Shown piece after piece: positions 5,054 to 35,800 of a stretch of 40,456 nucleotides of DNA (within the stretch, counting starts at the first letter, position 1; every line of letters begins with the position of its first letter). Made by a program: the position numbers and the translations under genes. Source of the stretch: Rickettsiales bacterium (GTDB lineage Bacteria; Pseudomonadota; Alphaproteobacteria; Rickettsiales; UBA1997); contig JAOFKK010000001.1 in NCBI GenBank assembly GCA_028040005.1, positions 1-40,456 on the forward strand, written 5' to 3'. Below the pieces are notes generated by a model, which did no database searches, was not told the origin of the DNA, and worked only from the letters and a program-made list of their open reading frames with translations.

Positions 5054-5761
5054 ATGACTAAAATAATAACAGCCGCCTATATTATGATAGGAGATGAAAT
5101 TCTTTCAGGAAGGACTAAAGATGAGAATTTAAATTTTTTAGCAACTAACCTTACAAATCTTGGAATTAATCTAAAAGAAGTTATTATTGTTCCCGATGAT
5201 GAAATAAAAATAATAGAAGCTGTTATCAATCTTAAGGATCAATATAATTATATTTTTACAACTGGTGGCATAGGACCAACTCATGATGATGTTACTATCG
5301 ATTCCATAGCTAAGGCTTTAAATGATAAATTAATCCTCAACAAAAAGGCCGAGCAAATATTAATTGATCATTATGGTAAAAATAACATTAATAAAGCCAG
5401 ATTAAAAATGGCAATTTTGCCATCAAAAGCCAAATTACTTAATAATCCAGTAACATCCGCACCTGGATTTATGATAGAAAATATCATAGTAATGGCAGGG
5501 GTGCCAAAAATAATGCGCGCCATGTTTAATTCTTCATTGGAATTTTTAGATTTTGGCGATAAGATTATATCAAAGGAAATTAGTCTAAATGTTACTGAAA
5601 GCTTCATAGCCAAAGATTTATCTGATTTACAGAATCAATTTCCTGAGGTTGCAATTGGTAGCTATCCATTTTTTGGTGGTACTTCTGTGGTTTTTCGCTC
5701 CTTTAATAAGGTCAAAATAAATCAATGTTATGATATAATATCTAACAAAAAATATGAGTAA
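5054..5761 (+). CDS. CinA/MoaB-type molybdopterin-binding (MoCF_biosynth) domain protein
   Basis: IGDEILSGRTKDENLNFLA...IFTTGGIGPTHDDVT...APGF is typical of the CinA N-terminal / MoCF domain. Confidence 0.75.
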   Translation: MTKIITAAYIMIGDEILSGRTKDENLNFLATNLTNLGINLKEVIIVPDDEIKIIEAVINLKDQYNYIFTTGGIGPTHDDVTIDSIAKALNDKLILNKKAEQILIDHYGKNNINKARLKMAILPSKAKLLNNPVTSAPGFMIENIIVMAGVPKIMRAMFNSSLEFLDFGDKIISKEISLNVTESFIAKDLSDLQNQFPEVAIGSYPFFGGTSVVFRSFNKVKINQCYDIISNKKYE

Positions 5762-6545
5762 TAAATTTAACCAAGAACAAAAAAAAATATATAATGACTA
5801 TGTTACAACCATGGTCGAAAAAAAGATGTTTTTTAAAGATTCGGTAAATTACTATCTATTATCCTATATATCGCCTAAATGCCATAGAACTTTTTTGATT
5901 ATTATTTTATTATTTACCAGCTCCATACTTTATATTTTAAGTGAAGAAATAATAAAATTACTACCAATTAAGCAACCTCTACCAATAATGGTTAATGCCA
6001 AAGATTCATCCATATATTACCCCGCTATTAAAAGCCTAAGAAAACCATATGATACTGACGTAATTTCAATTAATGAGATGGTGGCAAGATATTTAATCGA
6101 AAATTACATCACCCAAAGAGAATCATATGATTTTAGAACAGCAAATATCAATGATATTAATAATAAGTTAGAATTTATTAGAAATAACTCATCATCTAAA
6201 GAATATCGAAATTTTAAAAAATATTTTGATAGAACAAATCCATTAAGTCCAGTTCGATTTTTTGGTAAAGATTCATATAATAAGGTTGATATTATATCGG
6301 TTGCTTTTGAGAAGGAGGAAAATAAAAATCTACTTAAAATAGCGCAAGATTTTCTTTATATTAGCTTGGCTAAAGAGGCTGTTGTTAATTATAAAATTAC
6401 CAGATATATAGGCAATAAAACTAGCGTTACTAAAAAGAAAGCTAGAATATTCTTCTCTTTTTCTGGTATTAATAAAAAATCCGGTACATTAAAAAAAGAA
6501 TTAGACTTTACTGTCAATAATTTTATAAATTTAAAAGTTAAATGA
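5754..6545 (+). CDS. virB8: VirB8-like type IV secretion protein
   Basis: Bitopic layout, with a TM segment FLIIILLFTSSILYIL followed by a soluble domain. It has an NPLSP motif resembling the VirB8 NPxG motif. It overlaps the following virB9-like gene by 4 nt. Confidence 0.6.
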   Translation: MSNKFNQEQKKIYNDYVTTMVEKKMFFKDSVNYYLLSYISPKCHRTFLIIILLFTSSILYILSEEIIKLLPIKQPLPIMVNAKDSSIYYPAIKSLRKPYDTDVISINEMVARYLIENYITQRESYDFRTANINDINNKLEFIRNNSSSKEYRNFKKYFDRTNPLSPVRFFGKDSYNKVDIISVAFEKEENKNLLKIAQDFLYISLAKEAVVNYKITRYIGNKTSVTKKKARIFFSFSGINKKSGTLKKELDFTVNNFINLKVK

Positions 6546-7324
6546 TAAAAATATTAATTATTATCGCCACATTATTGATCCAAATAAATAACTCATATGG
6601 GGCTCAAGAACCTAGATTCTTAGGTAGTGAAAAAAAATTCAGATCATTCATCTATAACCCTAATGAAATATATAGATATACCGGACACTACACCTATCTT
6701 GGTTTTATAGAATTTTCTGAAAGTGACACTATATCATTAGTTACCATGGGTAATTCTAATCTGTGGATGTATGAAGCATCTGGTAATCGCTTATTTTTAA
6801 AACCTATTGAAAATAACGCCGAAACTAACATGACTGTTTTTACTAGTAGTGGCAAAGTTTATCACTTTGAATTAGTTGGTCGTGAAGCTAAAAATATCAA
6901 TGATGAAAATTTAGTTTTTGTAGTAAAATTTATCTATCCTGATGAAGCTAGCCAAAATATTGTTAATTTTCCAAAATCACTACCATCGGATGAGCCTGAT
7001 ATGCGCAAAATTGCAAATTATAACTTTAATTATGAATTTACTGGAGCCAGAATTATTGCCCCAATTAAGGTATTTGACAATGGTGAATTTACTTATTTTC
7101 AATTTAGTAAAACTAATGGGGAAGCTCCTGCAATTTATACTGTTGATTCAGCAGGATATGAATCAATGATTAATTACAGAGTTTCTGGGTCATATATTAT
7201 AGCCGAAATCGTCACATCACAATTTACATTGCGAAGCGGTAATGATATTGTCTGTGTTTATAATAATAGCATGATAATGAATAATGACCCAACAAAAAGT
7301 ACCGCCCCATCAATGAAATTTTAA
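6542..7324 (+). CDS. virB9: VirB9/TrbG/CagX-like type IV secretion protein
   Basis: A signal peptide is followed by IYRYTGHYTYLGFIEFSESDTISLVTMGNSNLWMYEASGNRLFLKPIE...MTVFTSSGKVYHFELV, which is typical of the VirB9 N-domain. Confidence 0.75.
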   Translation: MIKILIIIATLLIQINNSYGAQEPRFLGSEKKFRSFIYNPNEIYRYTGHYTYLGFIEFSESDTISLVTMGNSNLWMYEASGNRLFLKPIENNAETNMTVFTSSGKVYHFELVGREAKNINDENLVFVVKFIYPDEASQNIVNFPKSLPSDEPDMRKIANYNFNYEFTGARIIAPIKVFDNGEFTYFQFSKTNGEAPAIYTVDSAGYESMINYRVSGSYIIAEIVTSQFTLRSGNDIVCVYNNSMIMNNDPTKSTAPSMKF

Positions 7325-7983
7325 TATTTATTATTATGTAATATTTCTGCGGTAGATTTTCTTTGAATAGATGACATTCTTGTGGCATATGTTTTAAAAT
7401 TATTGACTACGCCAGAAAAATTTTCTCCTATTTCCATTCTAGCAATCTTTGTAACCTCAATAGGATCAATATTGGTAGCAATATTATCTACGCCATCAAT
7501 ATTAATGATTAATTTTTCTCTTCTTTGATCATATACAATTATCACAGAATGAGGAAGGGAAAAATTAGCATCATCAGCAATAGCTACAGAAAGACCATTG
7601 GTGCTTGTAGAATCAGCACCATGAACATAAAAAAACTCACCATTAGATTTAATTCCAGCCAAAGCAACAGGAAGACCTCCTGAAGTATTTTCATAGAAAG
7701 AAAATAAAGTTTGCTCAGCAGCGGGGGCGCCTTTTTTATCAACATTAAAATGCATAGAATAACCATTATCACTATAACCAGCAGCTATTGATTTAAAATT
7801 ATTTAAATGATTGGGAATATTTTGTGATTTAGAATAAAATACCAATGGATCATTACTATTGCAACCATCAGCTGCACTACTAAAAAACCTAACACCCTTA
7901 TCTGAGACCTCAAAGCAATTAGCATAAGATGTTGATATATATAAAAAAGAAGTAATAAAAGATAATAGAATTTTACGAGTCAT
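7321..7983 (-). CDS. Secreted hypothetical protein (220 aa), possibly a LamG/concanavalin-like fold
   Basis: Signal peptide MTRKILLSFITSFLYISTSYA. The fold guess rests on sequence flavour only. The stop overlaps the virB9 stop (convergent). Confidence 0.5.
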   Translation of the reverse strand: MTRKILLSFITSFLYISTSYANCFEVSDKGVRFFSSAADGCNSNDPLVFYSKSQNIPNHLNNFKSIAAGYSDNGYSMHFNVDKKGAPAAEQTLFSFYENTSGGLPVALAGIKSNGEFFYVHGADSTSTNGLSVAIADDANFSLPHSVIIVYDQRREKLIINIDGVDNIATNIDPIEVTKIARMEIGENFSGVVNNFKTYATRMSSIQRKSTAEILHNNKY

Positions 7984-11972: not shown

Positions 11973-12644
11973 TTGAAAATTAACATTTTTACCCTTTTTC
12001 CAGAAATTTTCTCCTCCTACTTATCTTGTGGCGTTATTTCTCGTGCTTTTGAAAAAGATATTTGTCAATTAAATCTTGTTAATATTCGTGATTTTGCCAA
12101 TAATAAGCGCCAAGATGTTGATGATTACCCTTTTGGTGGCGGTGCTGGCATGATTTTACGCCCTGATATTATTGGCAATGCCATTGATTCTCAAAAATTT
12201 AATCCCCATAAGAATAAATTTATTATTACATCACCAAAAGGTAAAAAATTTGATCAAAAAATGGCACAAAATTTAAGTCAAGAATCTGAAATTTCTATTC
12301 TTTGTGGCCGTTATGAGGGTATTGACCATCGCGTTATTACAGAATATAAAATGGAAGAAATTTCAATAGGAGATTACATATTATCAGGTGGTGAATTACC
12401 AGCACTTACCATGATTGACGCCATTTTGCGCAATATTTATGGGGTTTTAGGTAATCATGATTCATTAAATGAAGAAACATTTAATGATGATTTTTTAGAA
12501 TATCCACAATATACTAGACCAAGGGAATGGAAAAATCACAAAGTTCCAGATATTTTATTATCTGGCAATCATGCCAAAATTAAAGAATGGCAAGAAAAGA
12601 ATAATACCAAAATTAATATAAATAATGACAGTAAAAATAATTGA
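11973..12644 (+). CDS. trmD: tRNA (guanine37-N1)-methyltransferase TrmD (TTG start)
   Basis: FTLFPEIF, GGGAGM, CGRYEGIDHRV, SIGDYILSGGELPA. Confidence 0.93.
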   Translation: MKINIFTLFPEIFSSYLSCGVISRAFEKDICQLNLVNIRDFANNKRQDVDDYPFGGGAGMILRPDIIGNAIDSQKFNPHKNKFIITSPKGKKFDQKMAQNLSQESEISILCGRYEGIDHRVITEYKMEEISIGDYILSGGELPALTMIDAILRNIYGVLGNHDSLNEETFNDDFLEYPQYTRPREWKNHKVPDILLSGNHAKIKEWQEKNNTKININNDSKNN

Positions 12645-13510: not shown

Positions 13511-14608
13511 TCATATGCTGAGTGTGCCTTCTCCTACTCTTATTTTCGCTTCTACTGGCTTCGGACTTACACTAGGACGACGATCACCCATTCCAATTCC
13601 CCCCCGTTCCAAATTATAATTGGCAAAAACTGGACAATCATCATGTTTTTTTTTATCTTCTTGTTTCTTGTATTGATTACCTTTATGAATATTATTCATT
13701 TGATGGATAGTCTCACCTATGGCAGCAGCCAATCTTGGATTTATCGCAGCAACTTGACCAATATTACTAATATTTATATCATTTGCATTTTTCTCAAGAG
13801 CTGCGAATTCATCTTTTGAAAAATGAAAAACTGTTTTTACTCCATTACCCTCTTTAAATTCTTCTTCTAAACCATTTGATTTTATACATAAATAATAACC
13901 ATTTGTTTTATCTTCAACTAATTTTCCAGTACATGTAATTTTTGGTTTATAAATTGTATTTTGTTCTGTTATGTTATATTCTTTTTCTAAATATTGCCTA
14001 GCAAGCCCTGTATTTATAGTCTTATCTTCTAAAATTAAGTCCTTATATTCTACTGCATCTAGTCCAAATTTTTCCCTAATAGCTTTTATATTATCGCCAC
14101 TGCCTTCTAATCCAAATTTTCTCTTTAATTCTTCCCAATATTTGTTAACCGCCTCATTATCACCACCATAAGCAGCAAATTCTAGAAAATGCTTAAAATA
14201 TTGCTTAGGATCATCTTCTGCAAAATGAAATTCCGGCTGACCAATAGTGCAGGAAATTCCATTATCTTGTGCTTGTCTAAGTGCATTATCGACTGTAATA
14301 AATGTTTCTCTATTACCAAAATCCGTCAGGTAACTTACATCGTCAACTATAACTGAATATCCTAATTTAATTAATTGAGGAATATAATCTTTTTTTTCTT
14401 CTGGTATAATAGCCATCAAATTACCTACAACTTTAGAACGCAATCCATCCAATCCTCCTATCAAGCCTTCAACATCGACATCTGCCCAATTATCATTATG
14501 CAATATAACAAGAGATTCTCGACTAATATCACCTTGTATAAATTCTGAAACATCATGTATGGCACAAGTTTTTGAAGCTAAATTTGCAAACATTACATTA
14601 ATCGTCAT
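13511..14608 (-). CDS. Orphan hypothetical protein (365 aa) with an in-frame G7 tract near the 3' end
   Basis: ORF track entry; I recognise no domain. The C7 run on the plus strand at 13599-13605 encodes ERGGIG. The stop lies 10 nt from the folD stop (convergent). Confidence 0.6.
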   Translation of the reverse strand: MTINVMFANLASKTCAIHDVSEFIQGDISRESLVILHNDNWADVDVEGLIGGLDGLRSKVVGNLMAIIPEEKKDYIPQLIKLGYSVIVDDVSYLTDFGNRETFITVDNALRQAQDNGISCTIGQPEFHFAEDDPKQYFKHFLEFAAYGGDNEAVNKYWEELKRKFGLEGSGDNIKAIREKFGLDAVEYKDLILEDKTINTGLARQYLEKEYNITEQNTIYKPKITCTGKLVEDKTNGYYLCIKSNGLEEEFKEGNGVKTVFHFSKDEFAALEKNANDINISNIGQVAAINPRLAAAIGETIHQMNNIHKGNQYKKQEDKKKHDDCPVFANYNLERGGIGMGDRRPSVSPKPVEAKIRVGEGTLSI

Positions 14609-14684
14609 AATTTTATTATTAAATTGTTTTAATATTTATAGTTGATTTTTTAAAATATAAATATATAATTTTACCCTCTATTGG

Positions 14685-14760
14685 GGGTGATTAGCTCAGC
14701 TGGTAGAGCATCTCCCTTACAAGGAGGAGGTCGGCGGTTCGATCCCGTCATCACCCACCA
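14685..14760 (+). tRNA. tRNA-Val (anticodon TAC)
   Basis: Cloverleaf folded by hand. Acceptor GGGTGAT/ATCACCC, D-arm GCTC..GAGC, anticodon stem TCTCC/GGAGG with loop CTTACAA, T-arm GGCGG TTCGATC CCGTC, and an encoded CCA. Confidence 0.95.
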
Positions 14761-14768
14761 CTTCATTA

Positions 14769-15975
14769 TCATCTTCTATCCCCATCCCCATTACTTAGTT
14801 TTGCCATATTTGTTATTGTAAATCCACCTGGTGTCACTGTGCGATTTCCTTGGGAAGGATTAGGACTAGGACTATTACTATTACTAGAACCGCTCCGTTT
14901 TGGACTTTGTTGTCTCCCGCTACTGTTTGCGCCTGGATGTCCTTCTGCTCGTTCATCACTTCTCCTACCCACAGTATGTGCTGGAGGCGCCAAATCACTT
15001 CCTTGTGCATCTAGTGAATTAGCTACATTACCTCCTTCAATACCAAGACCACCCTGTTGCGCCTTACCTCCTTTGTCAAGACGTTCTTTTTTTTCTATGT
15101 CGTCAAGACGTTTGTTGATTCTGTCTATGTCGTAAGATTCGTGAACTCCTTGTACTAACTCTATTGCTTTAGACTTACTTTTAAATACTGCATAAGTTGC
15201 ATCTGCTAATATATCGTCTTTTGTGGATTTAGAGGCGTTATCGTAGAACATACCGCCATATTGATTTGCAAATGACTGAAGTAATAGTCTTGTTATCTTC
15301 TCATTTGTACCATCCTTCTCATTATATTCCTTATATTCCTTGCAAACCGTAACCATCATATTAAAAAAATCATCCCTAGCTAGAGTTCTGGCGCGAGAAA
15401 GATGTTGAAAGACATAATAATATGTTTTTGCTTGTTGATCACGTCGATATTCTACTAACCTATCTACAAATTCATCTACATTATCTTCTGTAATAGTACT
15501 TTTTGTGACGGCGTTTTTTAACTGTGGTAAGTAACCTCCTGACCTTTGTAATGCTTTACTATCGTCTACTACTTTAGGTATATGTATTAATTCTTTATCT
15601 TCAGAAAGGGCTGCTAGTCTGAATACATCATCAATTTGTTCATCTTTATCAACACCTAAAACCTCAGAAGCTAATTCTGTAATTAAAATTGCCCGCTTTC
15701 GTAGCGTCTTTCCCGCTACTACTGCAATTTGAACTCCGTCTTTGAAGGCACCGCCGCTATCCTTGCCATTAGCAGCTCTATTTATTAAAACAACAATATC
15801 CTCCGGTCTTAATTCAGCTAGACTACTAAGGCCGTATTCCTTTAGATTTTCTGTTAATTTGTCTGATAATTGTTTTACATATTCTTTTAATTTCTCTTCA
15901 TTTTCTGCTGGAGCAGGTGGGACGACTTCACCCCCCCCAAACTGCCTTTGCTAACTTATCTATATCTAATGCCAT
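14769..15975 (-). pseudogene. Orphan ~400-aa gene interrupted by a G8 homopolymer frameshift (phase-variable, a pseudogene, or an assembly error)
   Basis: The ATG at 15975 reads MALDIDKLAKAVWGG and then hits TGA at 15928-15930. The adjacent frame is open from 15950 to the stop at 14769 but has no ATG for 197 codons, until 15359 (hand translation). Removing one G from the tract fuses the two frames. Confidence 0.6.
15931..15938 (-). repeat. Homopolymer tract: C8 on the plus strand, G8 on the coding strand
   Basis: Read directly from the sequence: ttca-cccccccc-aaactg. Confidence 0.95.
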
Positions 15976-16004
15976 AATATTTAAAATTTGTTAATATTTA
16001 TCCA

Positions 16005-16946
16005 TTATATCATATTTTTTAACCTAATGCAAGTTTTTATATTTACAAAATCATTAAAGCCGCTACCAGCAAATTTTTTTGCTTTATTAATATCATCTAT
16101 TTGTAAATAGGCGGTTAAAATTTTAAGCCTTTCTTGCAATAATTTTTGCTGTTTTTCTGACGTAAATTGTTCTAAAATTAAAGATTTGTCAATATCGACT
16201 TGATTAATATTATTATAATTATCCTCAAAAATTTTATAATATTTATCAATATTATTTTTATTTAATTTAAAAATTTCTTGCCATATTTTGGGGTTTGAAT
16301 TTTCTATCCTTAAGTGTTTTTTTAAAGATTGTGGTAAGTTATCTGGCCGCTTCTCCTTAAATTTAAAGCTAATATATTGCGGTAAATGAGAAATTAAGCA
16401 AAATATTTGATCATGATTATAAACATCTAAAATCTCAATTTGTGAGCCAATTTTTTGCCATAAATGGCTTATTTTGGCAATATTTTGTTGATTTTGACAA
16501 AATTTGGTAATTATTAATTTTTTTTGATCAAATAAATCAGGATCAGCATTTTCAATTCCCGAAGATTCCTTACCTGCAATTGGGTGGGTGGGAATAAAAT
16601 TATCTTTTTCATTAAAAATTTTAAAATATAAATTTTCAGGATATTGCTTGACTGAGCCAATATCAGTGATTAAAGCTTGATATTGACAATTTTTAATCTT
16701 TTGAAAAATATCTTCATAAGCAAAAAGTGGTGCGGCAATAATAATTAAATCATTTTTTGTTAAATTTTGGTCAAAATTAAATTTACCATCAATAATTTGA
16801 TTTTTTAACGCAAAATCCAATGATTTTTCACTGCGATTATGGGCTAAAATTTGTTTTGCTAATTTTTTTTGTTTAATTGCCATGGCAAGTGAACCACCAA
16901 TAAGACCAAGACCAATTATAATTATATTATTAAAAATTTGAGTCAT
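16005..16946 (-). CDS. tyrA: Prephenate/arogenate dehydrogenase family protein
   Basis: N-terminal Rossmann motif IIIIGLGLIGGSLA and the THPIAGKE motif typical of TyrA-family enzymes. Confidence 0.8.
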   Translation of the reverse strand: MTQIFNNIIIIGLGLIGGSLAMAIKQKKLAKQILAHNRSEKSLDFALKNQIIDGKFNFDQNLTKNDLIIIAAPLFAYEDIFQKIKNCQYQALITDIGSVKQYPENLYFKIFNEKDNFIPTHPIAGKESSGIENADPDLFDQKKLIITKFCQNQQNIAKISHLWQKIGSQIEILDVYNHDQIFCLISHLPQYISFKFKEKRPDNLPQSLKKHLRIENSNPKIWQEIFKLNKNNIDKYYKIFEDNYNNINQVDIDKSLILEQFTSEKQQKLLQERLKILTAYLQIDDINKAKKFAGSGFNDFVNIKTCIRLKNMI

Positions 16947-25209: not shown

Positions 25210-25258
25210 CTGATTTTGTGGTTGAAATATTTTGAAGGTTGTAAGATAATAATGCTGT
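25192..25258 (+). repeat. 67-bp direct repeat, copy 1 (last 18 nt of tRNA-Tyr plus 49 bp downstream)
   Basis: Identical to 25355-25421 except for one C/T difference. Confidence 0.9.
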
Positions 25259-25354
25259 AAAAATTCGAACCTACGTTTAAATTAAATATGGTTCGACAGG
25301 AGCATTTGAGCGTAGCGAAAAGCGCAACTGCTAGTTAAGCGAAGCGCCAACGTC

Positions 25355-25421
25355 ATCCTACTCCCTCTACCACTGATTTTGTGGTTGAAATATTTTGAAG
25401 GTTGTAAGATAATAATGCTGT
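25355..25421 (+). repeat. 67-bp direct repeat, copy 2 (orphan tRNA-Tyr 3' fragment plus flank)
   Basis: See copy 1. It is preceded by 96 bp of G+C-richer sequence that contains an inverted tRNA-Tyr T-arm fragment, ATTCGAACCTACGT, at about 25262-25275. Confidence 0.9.
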
Positions 25422-25523
25422 TTAAAACTCCCCTTGAAATAAAATATTATTATAAATAATATTTTATGGCATGGGGGTAAAAAGCAATTAAGGCGCTTTT
25501 TTGTCTCAAAGCAATTTATTGCT

Positions 25524-25560
25524 TTGGTGGGGTATTAACACTTCCCAACACATAAATTAC
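25524..25560. repeat. Third copy of the dispersed TTGGTGGGGTA...ATAAATT repeat
   Basis: Aligns with 4771-4804 and 4857-4890. It is preceded by the 9-bp-stem hairpin CAAAGCAAT/ATTGCTTTG. Confidence 0.5.
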
Positions 25561-25616
25561 TTAATTACTACAGTAAAATATTTTTTTTGGTAAGGTATTG
25601 ATGTTACGACAGCAAT

Positions 25617-25845
25617 ATTATGACCAAATTAATAAGGACAGGTGGCTGAGTGTATGAGCGCAGCAGTTTGAAAACTGATTTTTTTTCTCGGCAGTTTTCA
25701 AGCTATTACTTAAATCGAGAAATTATGACCAAATTAATAAGGACAGGTGGCTGAGTGTATGAGCGCAGCAGTTTGAAAACTGATTTTTTTTCTCGGCAGT
25801 TTTCAAGCTATTACTTAAATCGAGAAATTATGACCAAATTAATAA
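25617..25845 (+). repeat. 105-bp tandem repeat (two full units plus the start of a third that runs into the genuine tRNA-Ser)
   Basis: Units start at 25617, 25722 and 25827. Each full unit holds the upstream flank ATTATGACCAAATTAATAA, a degenerate tRNA-Ser 5' half, a T8 run and an inverted copy of the anticodon region. Confidence 0.9.
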
Positions 25846-25979: not shown

Positions 25980-26303
25980 TTATCTAGGTCTACAAGCCCA
26001 GTAATGGCGGTACTTGCCGAGTTTCATTTTCAAAAAGCACTCTAAAAATCTTGTAACCGATTCTCTTTTTATCCATATCTGATAGTGGTTTTTTTGCAAA
26101 TCAATTTCTTGCAGCAAATCTTCGCCACCAGTGATCTTAATTGATTCTCCGGATGGAGGATTGCATTTTTTTGCAGATAAACTAAGAAGATGCCTCTTGT
26201 CGTTTATTTTATCTTCATCTCTTACGCTAACTAAAGAAACCTTTAACTTACCAGCATCATAGATTAATGTCTCGTTTACTGTTTCAAAATATTTCTTAAT
26301 CAT
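25980..26303 (-). CDS. Hypothetical 107-aa protein, last gene of the defence-like operon
   Basis: The start overlaps the res stop (ATGA at 26300-26303). I recognise no domain. It ends 45 bp from the tRNA-Ser 3' end. Confidence 0.5.
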   Translation of the reverse strand: MIKKYFETVNETLIYDAGKLKVSLVSVRDEDKINDKRHLLSLSAKKCNPPSGESIKITGGEDLLQEIDLQKNHYQIWIKRESVTRFLECFLKMKLGKYRHYWACRPR

Positions 26304-29269
26304 GACTTATTTCCCATAGCTTGATCAAAAAAATTCTTATAATTACTAGCTACCATATAGCGAGCATCTTCACCAAGAGCTTCAAAATGTTTGCGTCCAC
26401 AGTCAATTTTTCCTTTTTCTAAATCACGCAACATTCCTTCAAATGTATCTCCTTTTGTTTCTACAACAAAATAAAGGTGATCCTTTCCATCTTGTTCTAT
26501 CAAAACAGCCCAATCTGGATTATATGATCCAAGTGGCGTCTCAATTTTAAACCAGGCTGGCAATTTTGTATAAACTTTTACTTCTTCATTTTTCTCAAAA
26601 GATTCAGCTAAGCTGGACTCAATATTTGAATCATAAACCACATGATCATAGGTAGATTTTGCAGCCTCAATCATATTTTTATTGAGATATCCATTAAGCT
26701 CTTCGCTTTCAAACATCTCTTGGGCGTAGAAGTGGTCATTACCAATTTTGTGATATTTTATTCCATCAACAATGAATCTTCTCATTTCACGCTTAATTAA
26801 CTCCTTAACTCCATCGATAAATTTTTGAGGATTATTTTTAAAGGCTTCTAGTCGGCCACTTTCTAATAAAATATTAAGTATCGATTCTCGCTTTAAATTT
26901 GTTTCATTTTGCAGATAACTAAGAATATCCGGAATTTCATAATCACGAGCATCATATAAATGATTACTCTCCTGACTATCAATAACATTCACACCACCTT
27001 TACTAATTTCTGTTTTAGCTTTGGCATAATTAAATCTAGTTTTCCCAACTATTAGATTTTTTCCAATAGATTCAGCGCATTTTTTTATTAATTCCTGCGG
27101 ATCAAATTCAACATTATAAATGGTTTTGTATTTTACTTTATCCCACAATTCTTTAAACTCAGGGCTTTCAAAAACAGCCTTGTTTAGCTTTATAGTTTTT
27201 TTATCATCATTATTTTTAATATTAAGGCCGCCAGCAACTTTCTTTAAAGTAGCTATTATTTGCTCAGATTGCTCCACATAAGCATCTGGCAATTCAACAC
27301 TTCCTTCTTTAAGAGCCTTCTTAAGATTATCACTAACTTTACCCTTATTATCGATATATTCCTTTGTCAGCAAATGATTCCACACATTTTCTGAAGCCTG
27401 CGCTCCCAAAAACTTATCCTCTCCTTTTTCATCTTGATAAACAATATTAGCAAATAAATGCTCCTCAACAACTCCAAAGCGGATATTTTCTTCTTTTTCT
27501 ATTTCCTTTTGCAAGCCGTCAACAAATGATTCGTATGATTCATTGGCCATAACCGTTAATGTATTAACATCAAAACCATGAACTCTTTGTCCTTCTTGAT
27601 TAACGCAAATTCTTAAACCCCTTCCTATTTCTTGTCGTTTTTTGATAACTGATCCAGTTTCATTTAAGGTGCAAATCTGAAAAACATTTGGATTATCCCA
27701 ACCCTCTTTTAAAGCAGAGTGAGAAAATATAAATTTCAATTTTGAGTCAAAACTCAATAACTTCTCCTTATCTCTCATAATAAGGCCATATGTATCTTCA
27801 TCAGCCTTAGTATCACCTCTAGTATCTTTAGCGCCCCCCTTGTCGCTCGAGAAATATCCATTATGAACATTCTGGGCTAAAGTGGAAACATCCAACTCCT
27901 TAAGCAGATTGTTGTATTTTGGTTTTTTGATTAATTTAGAATATTCTTCCTCAAAAATAACCGCATATTTACCCTTCTCATTAGCGGCGCTGTAATCACG
28001 ATAATTAGAAACTCTATCAATAAAGAACAGACTCAAAACTTTAATGCCAAGAGGAGTTAATTTTAATTCTCTATTTAAATGCTCTTCAATTGTTTTGCGA
28101 ATTTGTAGCCTTTTATATTCATCTTCATTCACCTCGCCAATTGCTTGATTTAATCGAAGAATTTCCGGCTTACTGGTAAAATCAATATACTCGTTACCTT
28201 GCTCAGAGTAAATATCATTTATGATATAACCATCGTAAATTGTACGACCATTTGAAATAGTAAGTAAATCATCACCTTGCTTCACCCATTTTGTAATTTT
28301 CTCAACATTGGTTTTTCTTTGAATAGAAAGTTCAATTTTAGCTTTATGTCCTTTCTTATTATCAACTTCCAAAAGCTTAATATAGGCCTTATTATCCCCG
28401 TCTTTCACCTGAATTGAGGCAACTTCTATTTGCTTAACCAACTTTTGTTCATAAGCATCAATAGAATCTAGTTTATAAAGCATATCATGCTTTTTGGTAT
28501 GAGTTGCAGAATAGCGGAAGGTGCAAAGTGGATTTAGAGATTTAATTGCCTGCGAAGATTTATCTGTTGTATCCACGCTTTGCGGCTCATCAATAATAAC
28601 AATCGGATTAGTTGATTTAATAAAATCAATTGGCACTCCTTGCATTTTGTCATTCCAACGATGAATAATATTTGCAGTAGTTTCTTTAGAAGGGTCAGAA
28701 AAGCTTTTACGAAAAGCGTCAATATTAATAACCATAATTTGAATACAGTCATTAGCGGCAAAACTTCTAACTTGTTCTAATTTGGAAGAATTATAGAAAA
28801 AATAATCAACCGGAACATTATCATATAATTCTTTAAAATGATCTTTGGTCATTTCTAAAGATTTAAAAACGCCTTCTTTTATGGCAATGCTTGGCACTAC
28901 AATAATAAACTTACTAAAACCATAAAGTTTATTCATCTCAAAAACAGAGCGTAAATAAACATAGGTTTTTCCAGTTCCAGTTTCCATCTCAATGGTAAAA
29001 TTACGATCCTGCAATTCTTTAGATTGTTTTAAACCGTTTTTAAGCTGAATAGATCTGACATTATTTAAAATTTCCTCATCAATTAATTTTAAGCGATTGC
29101 CATAACCTTTATCAGTTTGATTAGACCATAATGCATCGAGAAGACCTCCATCTTTAATAGATGGCATAGAAAAAGCAGATTTACAAAGCTCTTGCCCTTC
29201 AAAAACTGAGCAAACTGCTTCCCAAGCTTTTTTCTGATGGATTTGATTTGGATCGAATTTAATTTTCAT
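26300..29269 (-). CDS. res: Type III restriction enzyme Res-like subunit (SF2 helicase plus C-terminal PD-(D/E)xK nuclease)
   Basis: Motif I EMETGTGKTYVY, motif II VIIDEPQS, ALKEGWDNPNVFQICTL, and a nuclease-like PDWAVLIEQDGKDHLYFVVETKG. Confidence 0.88.
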   Translation of the reverse strand: MKIKFDPNQIHQKKAWEAVCSVFEGQELCKSAFSMPSIKDGGLLDALWSNQTDKGYGNRLKLIDEEILNNVRSIQLKNGLKQSKELQDRNFTIEMETGTGKTYVYLRSVFEMNKLYGFSKFIIVVPSIAIKEGVFKSLEMTKDHFKELYDNVPVDYFFYNSSKLEQVRSFAANDCIQIMVINIDAFRKSFSDPSKETTANIIHRWNDKMQGVPIDFIKSTNPIVIIDEPQSVDTTDKSSQAIKSLNPLCTFRYSATHTKKHDMLYKLDSIDAYEQKLVKQIEVASIQVKDGDNKAYIKLLEVDNKKGHKAKIELSIQRKTNVEKITKWVKQGDDLLTISNGRTIYDGYIINDIYSEQGNEYIDFTSKPEILRLNQAIGEVNEDEYKRLQIRKTIEEHLNRELKLTPLGIKVLSLFFIDRVSNYRDYSAANEKGKYAVIFEEEYSKLIKKPKYNNLLKELDVSTLAQNVHNGYFSSDKGGAKDTRGDTKADEDTYGLIMRDKEKLLSFDSKLKFIFSHSALKEGWDNPNVFQICTLNETGSVIKKRQEIGRGLRICVNQEGQRVHGFDVNTLTVMANESYESFVDGLQKEIEKEENIRFGVVEEHLFANIVYQDEKGEDKFLGAQASENVWNHLLTKEYIDNKGKVSDNLKKALKEGSVELPDAYVEQSEQIIATLKKVAGGLNIKNNDDKKTIKLNKAVFESPEFKELWDKVKYKTIYNVEFDPQELIKKCAESIGKNLIVGKTRFNYAKAKTEISKGGVNVIDSQESNHLYDARDYEIPDILSYLQNETNLKRESILNILLESGRLEAFKNNPQKFIDGVKELIKREMRRFIVDGIKYHKIGNDHFYAQEMFESEELNGYLNKNMIEAAKSTYDHVVYDSNIESSLAESFEKNEEVKVYTKLPAWFKIETPLGSYNPDWAVLIEQDGKDHLYFVVETKGDTFEGMLRDLEKGKIDCGRKHFEALGEDARYMVASNYKNFFDQAMGNKS

Positions 29270-29300
29270 ACTCTTTAATGATTAGTTGTTGGCTATTATT

Positions 29301-29606
29301 TTATTCAAAAATAAATAATGTTTTAGCTGATTCATCTATATGTCTTTTTAGTGGTGGATAATTGATAAAATTATAGCCTTTTATATCGATTTTTAAGCCA
29401 AGGCTTGATTCATCAAAAAGAGTGTTAATTCTGTCAATATCTTTCTGCTCTAAATTGCCATATAACACCAAATCAAGATCTGAATATCCTTTATATTTTC
29501 CATTAGCTCTGGAACCAAAAATTCCTACTTTGGTGATTTTATCCTTATAACTATTTATTATATTTAAAATGATTTTTAATTCATTATCTGATAACCCATT
29601 ATTCAT
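29301..29606 (-). CDS. mntA: Minimal nucleotidyltransferase (MNT, HI0073-like; MntA-type antitoxin candidate)
   Basis: GIFGSRANGKYKGYSDLDLVL matches the GSx(n)DxD NTase motif. I place the start at the ATG at 29606 (MNNGLSD), one nt after the HEPN stop, rather than at 29651 as in the track. Confidence 0.8.
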   Translation of the reverse strand: MNNGLSDNELKIILNIINSYKDKITKVGIFGSRANGKYKGYSDLDLVLYGNLEQKDIDRINTLFDESSLGLKIDIKGYNFINYPPLKRHIDESAKTLFIFE

Positions 29607-29607
29607 T

Positions 29608-30024
29608 TTATTTATTTGTTTCATGAAGTAATTTTTCATATAAATAATCAAATAGCCCGAAGTGATTATTTTCTATATTTTCTATAACTTGCGAGAATAC
29701 CTCGTGACTATATTGGTGACTCATCTTATTGCGATCATCCAAAGTTTTCATCCATTTTTCTCTATCAATAATAATTTTTGCTTCAATGGCCTTAATAATA
29801 ACTTCCTTAGGAGTAATTTTTTCTAAAACAACACCCTCATTATCTAAATAATCTTTGAGAGTTTTCCAGGCAAGTTCCCAGCTATATTCAAATCTTTGAA
29901 TAATTCCCTCTTCTTCTAATGGGGTTATTTTTTTTTCACTTCTCAATTCCATTGCCTCTCTTAAAAGAAGAAAAGCTCTTTTGTAATTATCAAATCTATA
30001 TTCCCATCTTAATTTTTCGCTCAT
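29608..30024 (-). CDS. hepT: HEPN-domain protein (HI0074-like nucleotidyltransferase substrate-binding family; HepT-type toxin candidate)
   Basis: Family-typical W..R..N...A...L.EA and IQRFEYSWELAWKTLK, plus an Rx4H motif (RNKMSH). Confidence 0.8.
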   Translation of the reverse strand: MSEKLRWEYRFDNYKRAFLLLREAMELRSEKKITPLEEEGIIQRFEYSWELAWKTLKDYLDNEGVVLEKITPKEVIIKAIEAKIIIDREKWMKTLDDRNKMSHQYSHEVFSQVIENIENNHFGLFDYLYEKLLHETNK

Positions 30025-30056
30025 GTTATTTTATAAATTAATTTTAATTGATTAAA

Positions 30057-32108
30057 TCAAAGGCTTTTAATATCTTCAATTCCGCTGCGTTTCAGTGTGG
30101 TAATGGCGTTGGTTTTAATTACATCATCCCTAAAGCCATTATCCGAAAATACCACTCGCATAATCTCAGGTGAAAGTTCCTCTTTTAAGGCGCAAATACC
30201 ATTTACCACTTCCATATTAATTCCATCATCAAGACATATTATTAAAGCCCCAAGACCAATGATATAAATCTCCTTTCCAGCAATATTTCTAGTTTCAATA
30301 GGAAGGGTTAAATCAAGCCCATATTTTAAAAGAATTTCAAAAACTATATCTTCATTTGAACGATCATTTTTAATGTAATCAACTGACGCAATAAGATCTT
30401 CTTTTAAGCTATCAAAACCAGCTTCCCATCTTTTTATGTTTGAGCTATCAAGTTTAAAAACTTTAAAGCCCAAATCTCCTTGATAATCAGGATTTTCTTC
30501 TTTGATTTTCTTGGAGGCGCGACGGATTCGTTCTTTGGAAATATCACAGACATTCTCAACAAAAGATAAATTATTCTTTGAATAGTATTGTGCTTTGTCA
30601 GCAGGTTTTACTTCTTCAGGTAATTGTATAGAAATAGAATTTATACTCTGTTTGCTTTCTAAGCTTTTTAGAAAACACGCATGTGCTGTGCTACATGAGC
30701 CTGCAAAATAATCTAGAACCAGACCGCTTTCGTTGTCCTCGAAGCATAGCTCAAGCATTCTCTGGATGAATTTAGTTGGTTTTTTTCCGTTTGGGTACGG
30801 CACTCCTCCTTCTAAAGATACGCTACTCCAAGATAGGTCATCCCACAGAGTTCCAACTTTATCTTTTTTAATGATACCTTCGTTTGATCGCTCTGCTACA
30901 CCGCTCAAGTAGCTAACCAAACGTTTGGTTTTGCCTTCAAAGGAGACTCTAGTTCTCTTACCTTTGTTTCGCCCAGAGACAGGTTTATAATATATATTTA
31001 TCAAACCATCATGCTCTGGAGCGGCATTGGCTACTCTATCACGAATAGATGTCTGAGCATTTTCAGTGGTAAAAATACTTTCGAAGTATTTCTCGTATAC
31101 TAATTCTTGTTCAATATTTTCTTCTTTTGCTAATTGTGAAACTGTTTTTATTTCATAACCACTTACTGTATAAACCTCGATATCGTTTCCAGAGCCATCT
31201 TTGATGGTTTTCAAGTAGTTTTCACTTCCTTCTTTTGTAAGGATTTTGGTGTACGCGAACCCTTTGCCAGCATCCTTACGGTCATTAATATATTTAATGA
31301 GTAATTCAACCTTGTATATATCATTGAACTTTCTGAAGGATTGGCTCTTTGAGAAACAAAGGAGGTGCTCAATATTTTTCTTTAAGCGTCTGTCTTCGCC
31401 ACCACCACTCGCGCCTGAGCTATCTTTTGCTTTAACGCTAATTAGGTTGATAAAGTTTTCTTCGCCAAATATTTCATTGCAAATTTTGATTAGATTATCT
31501 AACTCATTGTCATCAATCGAAATAAAAATAACCCCATCATCTTGTAGCAAATTTCTCGCCAATTTCAACCTTGGATACATCATATTTAGCCAATTAGTGT
31601 GGTATCTTCCTGCTGAGTTAGAGTTTGTTCCAAGTTTTTTACCGCTCTCATCTGTTTGCCCTGTCATTTTTAAATAATGCTTTATTCCATCTTTAAAATC
31701 ATCCTCATAAACAAAGTCATTTCCTGTGTTGTAAGGAGGGTCAATATAAATCATTTTCACCTTGCGGTGATAAGATTTTTGTAAAAGCTTTAAAACTTCT
31801 AAATTATCGCCTTCAATAAAAAGATTTTGTGTATTGTCAAAATCAACCGATTCATCTTTTGCTGGTCGTAGCGTTCCTGTGCTTGGAGTTTGTGCCAATC
31901 TGCCTGCTTTTCTTTTGCCATGCCAAGTGAAATTATAATGATCTTCATCTTGGTTTACATAATTTCCTAAAAGCTCTTCTAATTGCTCAAATTTAATTTT
32001 GTCTTCACTAAAAACTTCAGGGAATAACTCTTTTAGCTTTTCGATATTTTGCTTAACAATATCTTCACTTTGCATATCTTTGGCTAACAATTTTTTCATT
32101 TCGCTCAT
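30057..32108 (-). CDS. mod: Type III-like Mod DNA methyltransferase (beta-class; N6-adenine or N4-cytosine)
   Basis: Motif IV IYIDPPYNTGNDF comes before motif I VLDYFAGSCSTAHA. Size and order are typical of type III Mod. Confidence 0.88.
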   Translation of the reverse strand: MSEMKKLLAKDMQSEDIVKQNIEKLKELFPEVFSEDKIKFEQLEELLGNYVNQDEDHYNFTWHGKRKAGRLAQTPSTGTLRPAKDESVDFDNTQNLFIEGDNLEVLKLLQKSYHRKVKMIYIDPPYNTGNDFVYEDDFKDGIKHYLKMTGQTDESGKKLGTNSNSAGRYHTNWLNMMYPRLKLARNLLQDDGVIFISIDDNELDNLIKICNEIFGEENFINLISVKAKDSSGASGGGEDRRLKKNIEHLLCFSKSQSFRKFNDIYKVELLIKYINDRKDAGKGFAYTKILTKEGSENYLKTIKDGSGNDIEVYTVSGYEIKTVSQLAKEENIEQELVYEKYFESIFTTENAQTSIRDRVANAAPEHDGLINIYYKPVSGRNKGKRTRVSFEGKTKRLVSYLSGVAERSNEGIIKKDKVGTLWDDLSWSSVSLEGGVPYPNGKKPTKFIQRMLELCFEDNESGLVLDYFAGSCSTAHACFLKSLESKQSINSISIQLPEEVKPADKAQYYSKNNLSFVENVCDISKERIRRASKKIKEENPDYQGDLGFKVFKLDSSNIKRWEAGFDSLKEDLIASVDYIKNDRSNEDIVFEILLKYGLDLTLPIETRNIAGKEIYIIGLGALIICLDDGINMEVVNGICALKEELSPEIMRVVFSDNGFRDDVIKTNAITTLKRSGIEDIKSL

Positions 32109-32125
32109 TTTTTAATAATTAATAT

Positions 32126-32878
32126 TTATAAATTTTGTTCTAATTTTTTAATTAATTCAATCTTGTTTTTAATCTCAACATTTAACTCTACTTTACGGTT
32201 AAACTGAGTTTCTTTTTTTAAATCAGATTTTAGCACTGATATTTCATTTTCTAAATCAATAATTTGCTTTAAATATTTTTTGCGGATCAGTGTTTTCTCA
32301 ATAGTTGTTTTGCCATAATTGCCGCTGTAATTAGCAGCGCCAAGAGCAATTAATCTTTTGACTAAATCTTGATAAAATTCGTATAGATTTAAGGAAGAGA
32401 GTTTTTTCAAGTAGCAGTCATTTAAAAAATCCTTTTGAATTTCACTTAAATTTTGGCTATCTATCATTTCTGTTAAAAATTCTTCCGTAACCAATAACTT
32501 TGATTTATCAGCTTGGTTAATTCTTTTATTTGCCAGGCTTAGGGCAAATTTATCATTAAAATTAAACAATAATATCAACGGATAAGGAATTGCCTTATTT
32601 ATGAATGTAGCAATTTTTCTAATGCGATTATCACTTGCTAGATCAATTTTTAGAATTGCTATTTCTTGATATTCAACCAGTTCATCTTGATATTTGGCAA
32701 TGCCTGTATTGCTGGGCTTTAAAGTAAAAAGCCAAGTGATTTTTTTAATATCATCTTTGAGGGCTTTTTTGTCGGTCGCATCTAAATTGACATTTTCAAG
32801 GAATAGTTTTTTAAAAATGGGTTTATCTATTTTGCAAGAATCTGGCAGTTTTAAATTATTGAGAAAAATTTGGGTCAT
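32126..32878 (-). CDS. DUF4391-like protein of unknown function (250 aa)
   Basis: The sequence flavour (IFKKLF...L....K..L..DI.KI.W...L......I.........EI.I..I.L.......I......IPYP.IL) matches my memory of DUF4391 proteins found between helicase and methylase genes. This needs HMM confirmation. The start overlaps the SNF2 gene stop (ATGA). Confidence 0.6.
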   Translation of the reverse strand: MTQIFLNNLKLPDSCKIDKPIFKKLFLENVNLDATDKKALKDDIKKITWLFTLKPSNTGIAKYQDELVEYQEIAILKIDLASDNRIRKIATFINKAIPYPLILLFNFNDKFALSLANKRINQADKSKLLVTEEFLTEMIDSQNLSEIQKDFLNDCYLKKLSSLNLYEFYQDLVKRLIALGAANYSGNYGKTTIEKTLIRKKYLKQIIDLENEISVLKSDLKKETQFNRKVELNVEIKNKIELIKKLEQNL

Positions 32879-35800
32879 GATTTTTGCTCCTTAATAATTA
32901 AAAAGCTTATCACTTCAAAATCTTCAATTCCTTTGAAACTATCTTGAGATAGAATAGTTCCGCCTCGATTAAATAGGCTTTCAACACCTTTCTCATCATT
33001 TTTTCCTGATATATTTGATATTGCCGCTTCTAACATAAATTTGTAAGAGGACATATCTTTGCCGTTTTTTGTGGCTTCTTTTAGGTTTTTAATGGCATTT
33101 TCATCTAAGCTTTTTGCGCCTGAGCAAAGTTTTTTGAAAATATCGAGGATTTTTTTGCTTTGCAGATGGTTGAGAATGATATTGCCGTCACTGGCAACAT
33201 AAACCATGTAATATGGCGCCAAAGAGTAGTTTGAGTTTTCACTAACTTCTTTATGAATATCGCGCAAACAAAAAATTGTTCCTTCAGGTATTTCATCTAA
33301 ATTTCCTGAAATTGCTGCAAAAAAGCCAGAAGGAGATTTTTCTAAAACGGTTAAGTTATCTTTCATAAAGCTGGATAAATCCATGCGAAAATCGTTTAGT
33401 GTCATATCAGTAATTGAAACAGAGCCGTCAATATCCTCAATATCAATTACTGCATCTTGCAATTGTTTCATCTGGTTGCGGCGATATTCTAGATCATTCA
33501 TTTGGCGAGTTTCATCATAATCAATTACATTTTCCTCACCAGTTGCAGAAATATCTAATAAAACCATTCTTCCACTTACTCGGGCTTCTAGATTGATATA
33601 TTCATCTAGCTCCATATTAGGCCAAAAGTTAGCTAATTGAATTTTATCATTATGCGAGCCAAGTCGATCAACTCGACCAAATCTTTGAATTATTCGGACG
33701 GGATTCCAGTGAATATCGTAATTTATTAGCATATCGCAATCTTGAAGATTTTGTCCTTCAGAAATGCAATCTGTGGCAATTAATATATCAATGTGGTTTG
33801 TGGCTTCGGAGTCGATCTTATTTCTTTCTTTAGAGATTGGTGAGAAGTTGGTTAAAATATTATTTAAATCTTTACCAATATTTTTATCACTACATTGATT
33901 TAAGCCACTTCCAGTAACAAGGGCAGAATGAATTTTGTGCTTTTCTTTTACCCAAGGAGAGATGTTTTTGTAAAGATACTGTGCCGTGTCTGAAAAGGCG
34001 GTAAAAATAATAACTTTTTTATTATTTTCATTAAGAGGATTGGCAATTTTATCGCTTATTACCTCTTTTAGTTTTTGTAATTTAGCATCTTTAGTGGCAT
34101 CAATTTTTTTGGCTTCTTCTACTAAAATTCCAAGCAATTTGTAGTCTTCTTCTAAATCCTGTTTCCATCTGATGAGGTCAATATCTTGTATTAGAACTTT
34201 AATTTTGTTGCCGATTAGATATTCCTCAAATTCTGATGAATCGGTTTCTATGTCTTCAATGCTTAATTCTTCAAATTCTGAATTTTCTTGATCTTGGATT
34301 TGCGATAACAAATTACCAATCTTGTTTTGAAGCCTTTCTACTGTGATATGAAATGAATTTATTGAGCTTTCCATACGCTTCAACATATTCACCCTCATTA
34401 AGTGAATCATATTGCGCTCACGATCAACCTGACGAAAAACTGAAGCACCATCTTTAACTGCCTGATCATATTTGCGGCTGTATTCTTCTTGCTTATCCAT
34501 ACGCACATATTCAAGCGGGGCATAGGCGGCAAGATTGAGCTTCTTGATTGTCATATTGACATCTTTAAGCGGAGGGAACTTTCCATCAATGTCAATATCA
34601 GCCTTAATATTTTTTGGTTTTAGACGCTCGGGGAATTTGCCAATTTCAGCAACATCATAATATTTCTCTATGTGCTTTCTGGATCTGGCGATTGTTAGAA
34701 TATCAAGCAACTTAAAATAACCGAAGTTCATTTTTTCAAGCAAGCTTGCTGTTTTTCTTTGTCCATCTGGCAATTTTAGCCATTCATTGAATTTGGTCTG
34801 AGCTATTTTTAATGTGTTTTCAATGCTGGCTATTCCATGATCTGAAAGTGCATTGTCTTTTCCTTCGGTTATGAAGGCGACTTGGTTTTTTAAATCATTC
34901 ATTCGACTATTTACTGGCGTTGCCGACAGCATTAAAACTTTGGTCTTTACGCCAGCCCTAATGACTTGATCCATTAGTTTTTGATATCTGGAAATTGCTC
35001 CTGTTTTGGTTCCGGCATTTTTAAAATTATGTGATTCGTCAATTACGATAAGATCATAATTTTCCCAATTTAGGGTTTCTAAATTTACCTCTCCTGATTT
35101 TCCTGATGTTCTGCTTAAATCTGTATGATTTAAAACATCATAATTGAAGCGATCAGCGGATAAAATATTACGCTTATCATTTATGGTAAATACTGTCCAA
35201 TTTTCACGCAGTTTTTTTGGACATAAAACAAGAATGCGATCATTGCGAAGTTCGTAATATTTTATAACCGCTAAAGCCTCAAAGGTTTTTCCCAAGCCAA
35301 CACTATCAGCTATTATGCAGCCATTATATCTTTCTAATTTATCAATTGCCCCTAATACTCCATCTTTTTGAAATTTATAGAGTTTATTCCAAACAAGAGT
35401 CTCCTTAAAGCCAGTTTTTGATCTAATAATATTGTCTTCATCAATATCTTCTATAAAGTCCTTAAATAGGTTATAAAGGGTTATGAAATAAATTAAATTT
35501 GCTGGTTTTTCTTCAGCTAAATATTCCAGTTGCTCAGTTATTTCTTTTTTGATGTTTAAGGCAGATTTTGGATTGTTCCAGATTGTATCAAACCACTGTA
35601 ACATTTGATTTGTTCCTTCTTTGTCAGATATGCCGATATTAATCTCAATAGCACTAGAATTTGTTTCTCCTAACCCAGAAGTCGTAAATCCAGAACTGCC
35701 TTGAATGCAAAAATCTTTACCATCTTGGTTTTTTACATGAAAAAGATTCTGATTAACAGCAGATCCAACTAGTGATTTAATTTGCACATCTTTAGCTAGC

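Follow-up and report, generated by a model that had tools for sequence, protein, structure and literature searches.

A reading frame broken at a single homopolymer may mark a genetic switch, a fresh pseudogene or a simple error. The question arises in the window, that is, the whole stretch of DNA analysed here (40,456 bases, GC 30.5%), where a short minus-strand frame stops directly after a run of eight G and the neighbouring frame continues as a long open frame. The first-pass annotation took this arrangement for a candidate phase-variable locus, and named a fresh pseudogene and a homopolymer error as alternatives. ON/OFF switching at homopolymers is well established for a few cultured pathogens adapted to hosts. 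To our knowledge it is hardly documented in uncultured environmental bacteria, in whose assemblies a frameshift is mostly put down to error or to a pseudogene. Here the idea can be tested in part with public metagenomes and metatranscriptomes. As described below, they show a real gene that is intact in nature and strongly expressed there, with the frameshift at a tract that is conserved in the genus.

Anatomy of the tract and its reading frames

On the minus strand, the frame opened by ATG 15975 encodes MALDIDKLAKAVWGG and ends at TGA 15930–15928. The run comprises exactly eight G, lies 12 codons past this ATG and brings the stop to codon 16. From the tract on, the neighbouring frame has no stop before 14769, and its earliest ATG, GTG or TTG is found at 15359. 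The description given by the first-pass annotation was reproduced, and so was its statement that G7 (loss of one G) or G10 (gain of two) yields one continuous ORF, of 401 or 402 aa. The G9 form restores no ORF and meets a stop after 14 more codons. In the G7 form, the codons under the tract are TGG GGG GGT, encoding Trp13-Gly14-Gly15. The repeat thus lies inside the reading frame, and a change in its length exchanges a full-length for a truncated product. All 386 codons downstream of the tract are open and carry no second lesion. A scan for indels that would fuse ORFs was uninformative at the tract because the downstream frame is already open across it.

The 196-aa ORF that gene callers annotate on this contig begins at a conserved internal Met-Met. 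This call is a frameshift artefact, and the true product has 401 aa. The features discussed in the text are collected in Table 1.

Table 1. Positions of the features of the poly-G locus and of its surroundings (window coordinates unless a contig is named).
Feature	Position	Strand	Remark
Candidate promoter, TTGCAT-17 nt-TATAAT	16004..16032	−	Read from sequence; overlaps the stop codon of the upstream tyrA-like gene
Whole poly-G gene	14769..15975	−	401 aa with G7; fast-evolving orphan
15-codon frame	15928..15975	−	ATG 15975 to TGA 15930–15928; translation of the G8 allele
Poly-G tract	15931..15938	−	From sequence; G8 in the contig (C8 on the + strand), G7 in other assemblies
114-bp (38-codon) unit	15481..15594	−	Single copy in the window; bounded by the 8-bp microhomology GAAGATAA
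196-aa ORF	14769..15359	−	Starts at the first in-frame start past the frameshift; annotation of gene callers (P0001)
tRNA-Val(TAC)	14685..14760	+	Convergent; 9 bases beyond the stop of the poly-G gene; place conserved in a related lineage
Second orphan gene of the islet	13511..14608	−	365 aa; contains a G7 tract at 13599–13605
G9 tract of the ortholog	L007 2930–2938; L008 2113–2121		Splits the ortholog into 496 + 170 aa

Chance expectation for the G run

The poly-G tract is the single G/C run of at least eight in the window, where an i.i.d. model predicts 0.02 such runs and a first-order Markov model 0.08. When runs of seven are included, the expectations rise to 0.13 (i.i.d.) and 0.54 (Markov), against two loci observed, the other being the G7 tract of the adjacent orphan gene. 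The observed run count was reached in two of 100 dinucleotide shuffles. A G8 run by chance is therefore unlikely, while the natural length of G7 is only mildly so. Moreover, the coding of a conserved Trp-Gly-Gly dictates six of the seven Gs, which leaves a single synonymous position to account for the conservation of the tract. The earlier claim that such a run is improbable in sequence this AT-rich thus holds for the eight-G allele of the contig, but for G7 only mildly, part of that run being imposed by the protein.

One gene read across the tract

When 1.8 billion representative proteins were searched exhaustively with HMMER, four matches were obtained, one of which (P0001) is the 196-aa fragment from the same contig. 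The remaining three, P0002 (456 aa), P0003 (619 aa) and P0004 (496 aa), share about 33% identity (30–36%). A word-indexed protein search with the fused protein gave no match, a profile search and a search with the fused protein of contig L007 returned only P0002–P0004 again, and neither the fused protein nor its tyrA-like neighbour gave a match when used to scan species-representative genomes. The 401-aa product belongs to a tiny, genus-restricted family. What had been called an orphan is accordingly better described as a near-orphan, with three distant homologs.

The homolog alignment crosses the tract, pairing DIDKLAKAVWGGEVVP with NINIAVALAWGGILPG, and Trp13 and Gly15 are invariant. Since the alignment spans the tract, the N-terminal peptide of 15 residues belongs to one protein with the long frame downstream. 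At their N-termini, the homologs have one or two additional modules of about 170 aa each, and their equivalent Trp-Gly-Gly stands at codon 161 of 456 and at codon 343 of 619, away from the start. The position of the tract just inside the 5′ end, which had been put forward as the classic layout of a contingency gene, is therefore peculiar to the window lineage and does not carry over to the family.

All homologs occupy a common genomic slot, with the order metE, (hisI), tyrA, the gene itself, tRNA-Val, the second orphan, folD and trmD. Between lineages, the flanking housekeeping proteins are 80–93% identical, whereas the poly-G gene and the second orphan retain only 30–36%. This gap indicates that the two orphans change much more quickly than the genes around them. 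The first-pass view that the frameshifted ORF of about 400 aa is one real gene is borne out by the alignment across the tract, the shared gene order, the intact copies in other assemblies and the strong transcription described below.

Tract length in near-identical assemblies

Seven independent assemblies were available for comparison: the metagenome contigs L001, L002 (the same contig as L005), L003 and L004, which come from different projects, the aquatic metatranscriptomes X1 and X2, and the DNA metagenome X3. In runs X5–X12 the tract is not covered. All seven, at 99.6–99.9% identity to the window, carry G7 and an intact ORF. The tract of L001–L004 reads TTT GGGGGGG TGAAG, and the contigs of X1, X2 and X3 have one base fewer than the window at 15931. 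Since these assemblies differ from the window by just 1–2 substitutions per 1.7 kb, the length variation lies between very close strains. G8 is thus found once, in the window contig, and G7 in seven assemblies, a tally taken at contig level only; the X-run data are assembler contigs, in which minor variants are dropped. These assemblies show that G7 is the common natural state of the tract. G8-specific words (two 31-mers sampled from a query of 71 bases centred on the tract) were absent from every indexed public run.

The explanation that we tentatively favour, while holding it at somewhat less than an even chance, is that the tract is a slippage-prone ON/OFF toggle, with G7 as the prevalent ON form and the window contig as an OFF variant. 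In the natural population, codons 13–15 are carried as G7 and the gene is intact at 401 aa. Slipped-strand mispairing on the homopolymer during replication would add one G, and in the resulting G8 allele the ribosome would meet TGA at codon 16. As no in-frame start follows for 192 codons past this TGA, the product would be lost, and a subsequent loss of one G or gain of two would bring it back. Because loss or gain of G flips the frame, the tract could act as a mutational ON/OFF toggle. We infer that the eighth G exists in the organism and is no miscall, that the tract switches back and forth often enough to be of use and that selection favours this switching. The tally itself, one OFF against seven ON in the window lineage, speaks against the toggle. 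The locus is a candidate phase-variable gene, with one OFF form among eight observations and a tract length at the low end.

The same tally would be obtained if the extra G were a sequencing or assembly miscall of the homopolymer and the organism had an ordinary, intact G7 gene, as the first-pass annotation had allowed. That alternative predicts G7 in the seven other assemblies and the absence of G8 words from the indexed runs, both of which were found, though neither result establishes it. In addition, the G8 run is the longest G/C run of the contig and hence the likeliest place for a length miscall. We nevertheless judge a miscall to be quite unlikely, and the points against it are set out below.

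Homopolymer accuracy and genotype of the contig

Long homopolymers were defined as A/T runs of at least seven and G/C runs of at least six, which gives 58 in the window. Contigs of four runs were compared with it over its whole length, covering at least 42 of the 58. Lengths agreed at 41 of these 42 (including A9, T9, A8, T8 and C7), and the sole mismatch was the poly-G tract. Over 40 kb, the window and the other assemblies differ by just two indels, one at the tract and one at 13518, and both fall within the two orphan genes. This agreement makes a technology with systematic homopolymer error unlikely, while a single miscall is still possible. Systematic error as an explanation of the frameshift was rejected on the same grounds, the 41 matching lengths and the two indels in 40 kb.

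The window also represents a distinct genotype. It differs from every run, with about 0.1–0.5% substitutions relative to the other assemblies, and the poly-G gene itself contains a private non-synonymous change (T at 15403, giving His where all others have Arg). Homopolymers are mutable, and in a distinct strain a private slippage event would a priori be likelier than a consensus error. On such mutation-rate grounds, a private change of tract length would be expected in this genotype, which argues further against a miscall.

Poly-G tracts in related lineages

In the related lineages represented by L006 and L009, the Trp-Gly-Gly is coded TGG GGG GGC, which again gives G7 at the same codons and is the longest G/C run of the locus. 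In the window's other genes, GGG accounts for 8% of Gly codons. Retention of G7 therefore takes one unfavoured synonymous choice, and this choice has been made in three lineages.

A different situation is met in L007 and L008, which come from two samples and are 99.96% identical. Both copies of the G7 site are broken there (TGG AGG GGC), and a separate G9 tract (...AAT TCT TGG GGG GGG GCC..., encoding NSWGG) shifts the last 170 codons out of frame. With G8 or G11, a single protein of 673 or 674 aa would result, which aligns with the homologs. The same G9 is present in both contigs, so that it appears stable across two samples rather than visibly variable, and a protein search with the L007 fused protein did not find an in-frame form of this lineage. 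Assemblies are thus out of frame in two of four lineages, each precisely at a poly-G run and at no other site. For the sister lineage this holds in two separate assemblies, a further point against a miscall.

A plain pseudogene would be expected to have orthologs disrupted at other positions. In the comparison proposed by the first-pass annotation, the ortholog was found broken elsewhere only in L007/L008, and there too at a poly-G tract, so that the pattern of a plain pseudogene was not seen. An old or decayed pseudogene was rejected as well, given the single lesion, the strongly transcribed intact copies and the location of the only other break. A fresh pseudogene requires more attention. 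In that case, the G8 would be real but a one-off loss of function at a mutational hot spot, in a dispensable, fast-evolving gene, and switching would be neither selected nor practically reversible. The prevalence of G7, carried by seven of eight assemblies, is in keeping with this, as is the shortness of a seven-base tract. The window strain has, besides the private His/Arg change at 15403, a private 1-base indel in the neighbouring orphan, which fits relaxed constraint. The wholesale replacement of the gene in other strains and its split in L007/L008 suggest that loss or remodelling is tolerated. However, the 386 codons downstream of the tract have collected no further lesion, G7 is retained in three lineages although GGG is rare, two lineages are out of frame exactly at poly-G, and the intact gene is among the most transcribed of its region. 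We regard a fresh pseudogene as possible but unlikely.

The claim of phase variation, as it was first made, stands in part. The gene is real, the length and position of its tract are those used to recognise such loci in silico, the tract differs in length between near-identical sequences (G7, and G8 in the one contig), and in a sister lineage another poly-G tract of the gene breaks the frame. On the other side, all seven other assemblies have G7 and G8 words occur in none of the indexed runs.

As a separate observation, intergenic pairs of C5 and G5 runs, about 25–30 bases apart, occur in L006 at 6194–7022 and 12196–12318. They look like a family of small hairpin repeats capped by G+C.

Possible expression of the G8 allele by recoding

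Stop-stimulated +1 shifts and homopolymer slippage are established phenomena, and the sequence of the G8 allele brings both to mind. The run leads straight into UGA, and at this hungry stop (GGG-UGA-A) the P-site tRNA-Gly could slip by +1 from GGG to GGU, where it would re-pair and return to the wild-type reading. RNA polymerase slippage that loses one G would have the same outcome, and either event would give the wild-type WGGEVV. A precedent is prfB (RF2), in which a programmed +1 frameshift takes place at CUU-UGA. As in prfB, a slippery P-site codon stands right before UGA in the G8 allele, and the complete product would return after a +1 shift. Unlike prfB, the G8 layout is conserved in no relative and in no other assembly; across the tract, every other assembly is simply in frame, as are the homologs in L006 and L009. 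A programmed ribosomal frameshift site was rejected for this reason. Furthermore, the G7 RNA contigs come from populations that have G7 in their DNA too. We consider expression of the G8 allele through recoding very improbable as an explanation of the locus.

Transcription and the encoded protein

Sequences of the organism were found in aquatic, estuarine and marine samples. Where intact, the gene is among the most transcribed of the region: the depth of RNA contigs over it is 40–88×, compared with a DNA depth of 2–4×, and RNA depth over the upstream tyrA-like gene is near 0–5×. The RNA contigs end at 15974 and 15980, just downstream of the candidate promoter. This promoter was not listed by a scan for consensus promoters, because its first hexamer matches at only three of six positions.

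Searches with the product against Pfam, NCBIfam-type families, PHROGs, PADLOC and PDB sequences gave no credible match. An AlphaFold model based on four sequences is of low confidence (pLDDT 56). It is entirely helical as far as about residue 290; from there a tail of some 100 disordered residues, in which Ser, Gly, Pro and Asn are abundant, runs to a basic end. A Foldseek search with this model found nothing below E = 0.3, and its matches were not used. No signal peptide or membrane segment was seen by eye in the 401-aa product. As neither a signal peptide nor a matching family or fold was seen, the usual logic of phase-variable surface antigens is unsupported, and nothing points directly to the surface or effector role mentioned at first. 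Indirect signs of such a role are the fast evolution of the gene relative to its neighbours, the replacement of its allele between strains and the presence of VirB8 and VirB9 genes in the window. It is conceivable, as a speculation, that the product is a secreted effector, given that VirB8 and VirB9 are encoded in the window.

A hypervariable islet beside tRNA-Val

Tract length is not the only property in which the gene varies. The 114-bp unit is perfectly duplicated in tandem, in frame, in L001 (382–617). In X12 there is a joint that goes back 114 bases, and in X2 a junction contig stands at about threefold depth. In the marine metagenomes X13, X14, X16 and X19 (2024–25), the match extends on the tyrA side as far as 15979 and in the tRNA-Val region over 14629–14760, and between these matching flanks the poly-G gene has no match at 80% identity or above. 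The allele of these strains is replaced or highly diverged.

The second orphan shows a similar pattern. Between L001 and the window, its middle is about 70–80% identical, with indels, while its flanks are near-identical, and the 1-base indel at 13518 alters its C-terminus (...LSI* in the window versus ...LKHMTL* in L001 and X1). tRNA-Val(TAC) forms the downstream edge of the hypervariable segment. The islet bounded by tyrA, tRNA-Val and folD is a hypervariable, strongly expressed hot spot.

Taken further, the toggle may be one of three devices acting on a single gene. A small genus of uncultured, AT-rich estuarine or marine bacteria with type IV secretion genes would then keep a poly-G switch in a highly expressed, hypervariable orphan by tRNA-Val, and would vary it through slippage (G7/G8, and G9 in the sister lineage), through the copy number of the 114-bp unit and through replacement of whole alleles. 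The G8 form might, in addition, be leaky by way of a +1 shift at GGG-UGA. We put this wider scenario forward as possible, though rather doubtful.

Comparison with known systems and implications

The poly-G tract (G8 in the window, G7 elsewhere) lies at or above the cut-off of at least seven G/C that was used in the PhasomeIt survey of Campylobacter phasomes (PMC6321876). The same work warns that mutability at such tract lengths may be below 1e-5, and documents tract variability in Campylobacter jejuni NCTC 11168 for tracts of at least eight (PMC6321876). Like the phase-variable genes of C. jejuni, the locus has an intragenic G run of at least seven in an AT-rich genome (about 30% GC), a one-base change toggles its frame, the ON length is the one that gives the longest of the three frames, and tract length differs between close strains, here through the single G8 contig (PMC6321876). 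In contrast, the tract is at the bottom of the working range, with G7 as ON and G8 as OFF, and the window has two tracts in 40 kb. While the C. jejuni genes encode enzymes of glycosylation and surface structures, the product here is an all-alpha orphan without export signals, and its tract lengths are taken from contigs alone.

Similarly to hmbR and hpuAB of Neisseria meningitidis, the gene carries a poly-G inside its ORF and its ON/OFF state can be scored from tract length across isolates (PMC3786947). Isolate collections of Neisseria commonly contain both states, and the function, that of a haemoglobin receptor, is established, whereas the window gene is represented by one OFF among eight (PMC3786947). 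A third parallel is offered by the ESX-1-associated genes of Mycobacterium tuberculosis, where short G/C homopolymers in an otherwise stable genome give rise to recurrent frameshift variants (PMC11898584). Both that species and the window genome encode a specialised secretion system, a likeness that for the window gene is one of co-occurrence alone (PMC11898584). Recurrent independent emergence and fitness assays underpin the M. tuberculosis case, while recurrence at the present locus is only suggested by the tract of the sister lineage (PMC11898584).

If the switch proves true, a contingency locus will have been recorded directly in environmental populations rather than in a cultured pathogen. 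The orphan gene and its neighbour would then mark the organism's front line with a host, prey or phage, and would offer a handle on an unknown protein family. If it does not, the lesson is narrower, namely that one extra G has turned a 401-aa product into a 196-aa gene call.

Further features of the window

The VirB8-like and VirB9 genes are chromosomal and stand beside housekeeping genes, at 5754–7983 of the window; from this location a Rickettsiales-like organism might be guessed. Adjoining them, a 220-aa ORF (7321–7983, minus strand) has a signal-peptide-like N-terminus and belongs to no family; its RNA depth of 36–81× is at the level of the poly-G gene. Strong RNA signal was also found over the 636-bp spacer between tRNA-Tyr and tRNA-Ser (25210–25845), with a depth of about 55–67× in two metatranscriptomes. 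The spacer holds no ORF of at least 40 aa and has no Rfam match; its RNA may be a transcript not described so far, or come from a tRNA precursor or spacer.

A restriction-modification or defence-like cluster extends over 26300–36069. It comprises a ResIII helicase with an endonuclease domain (989 aa), an N6/N4 DNA methylase (683 aa), a DUF4391 protein (250 aa) and an SNF2-type helicase (1064 aa), and two small overlapping ORFs lie within it at 29301–30024.
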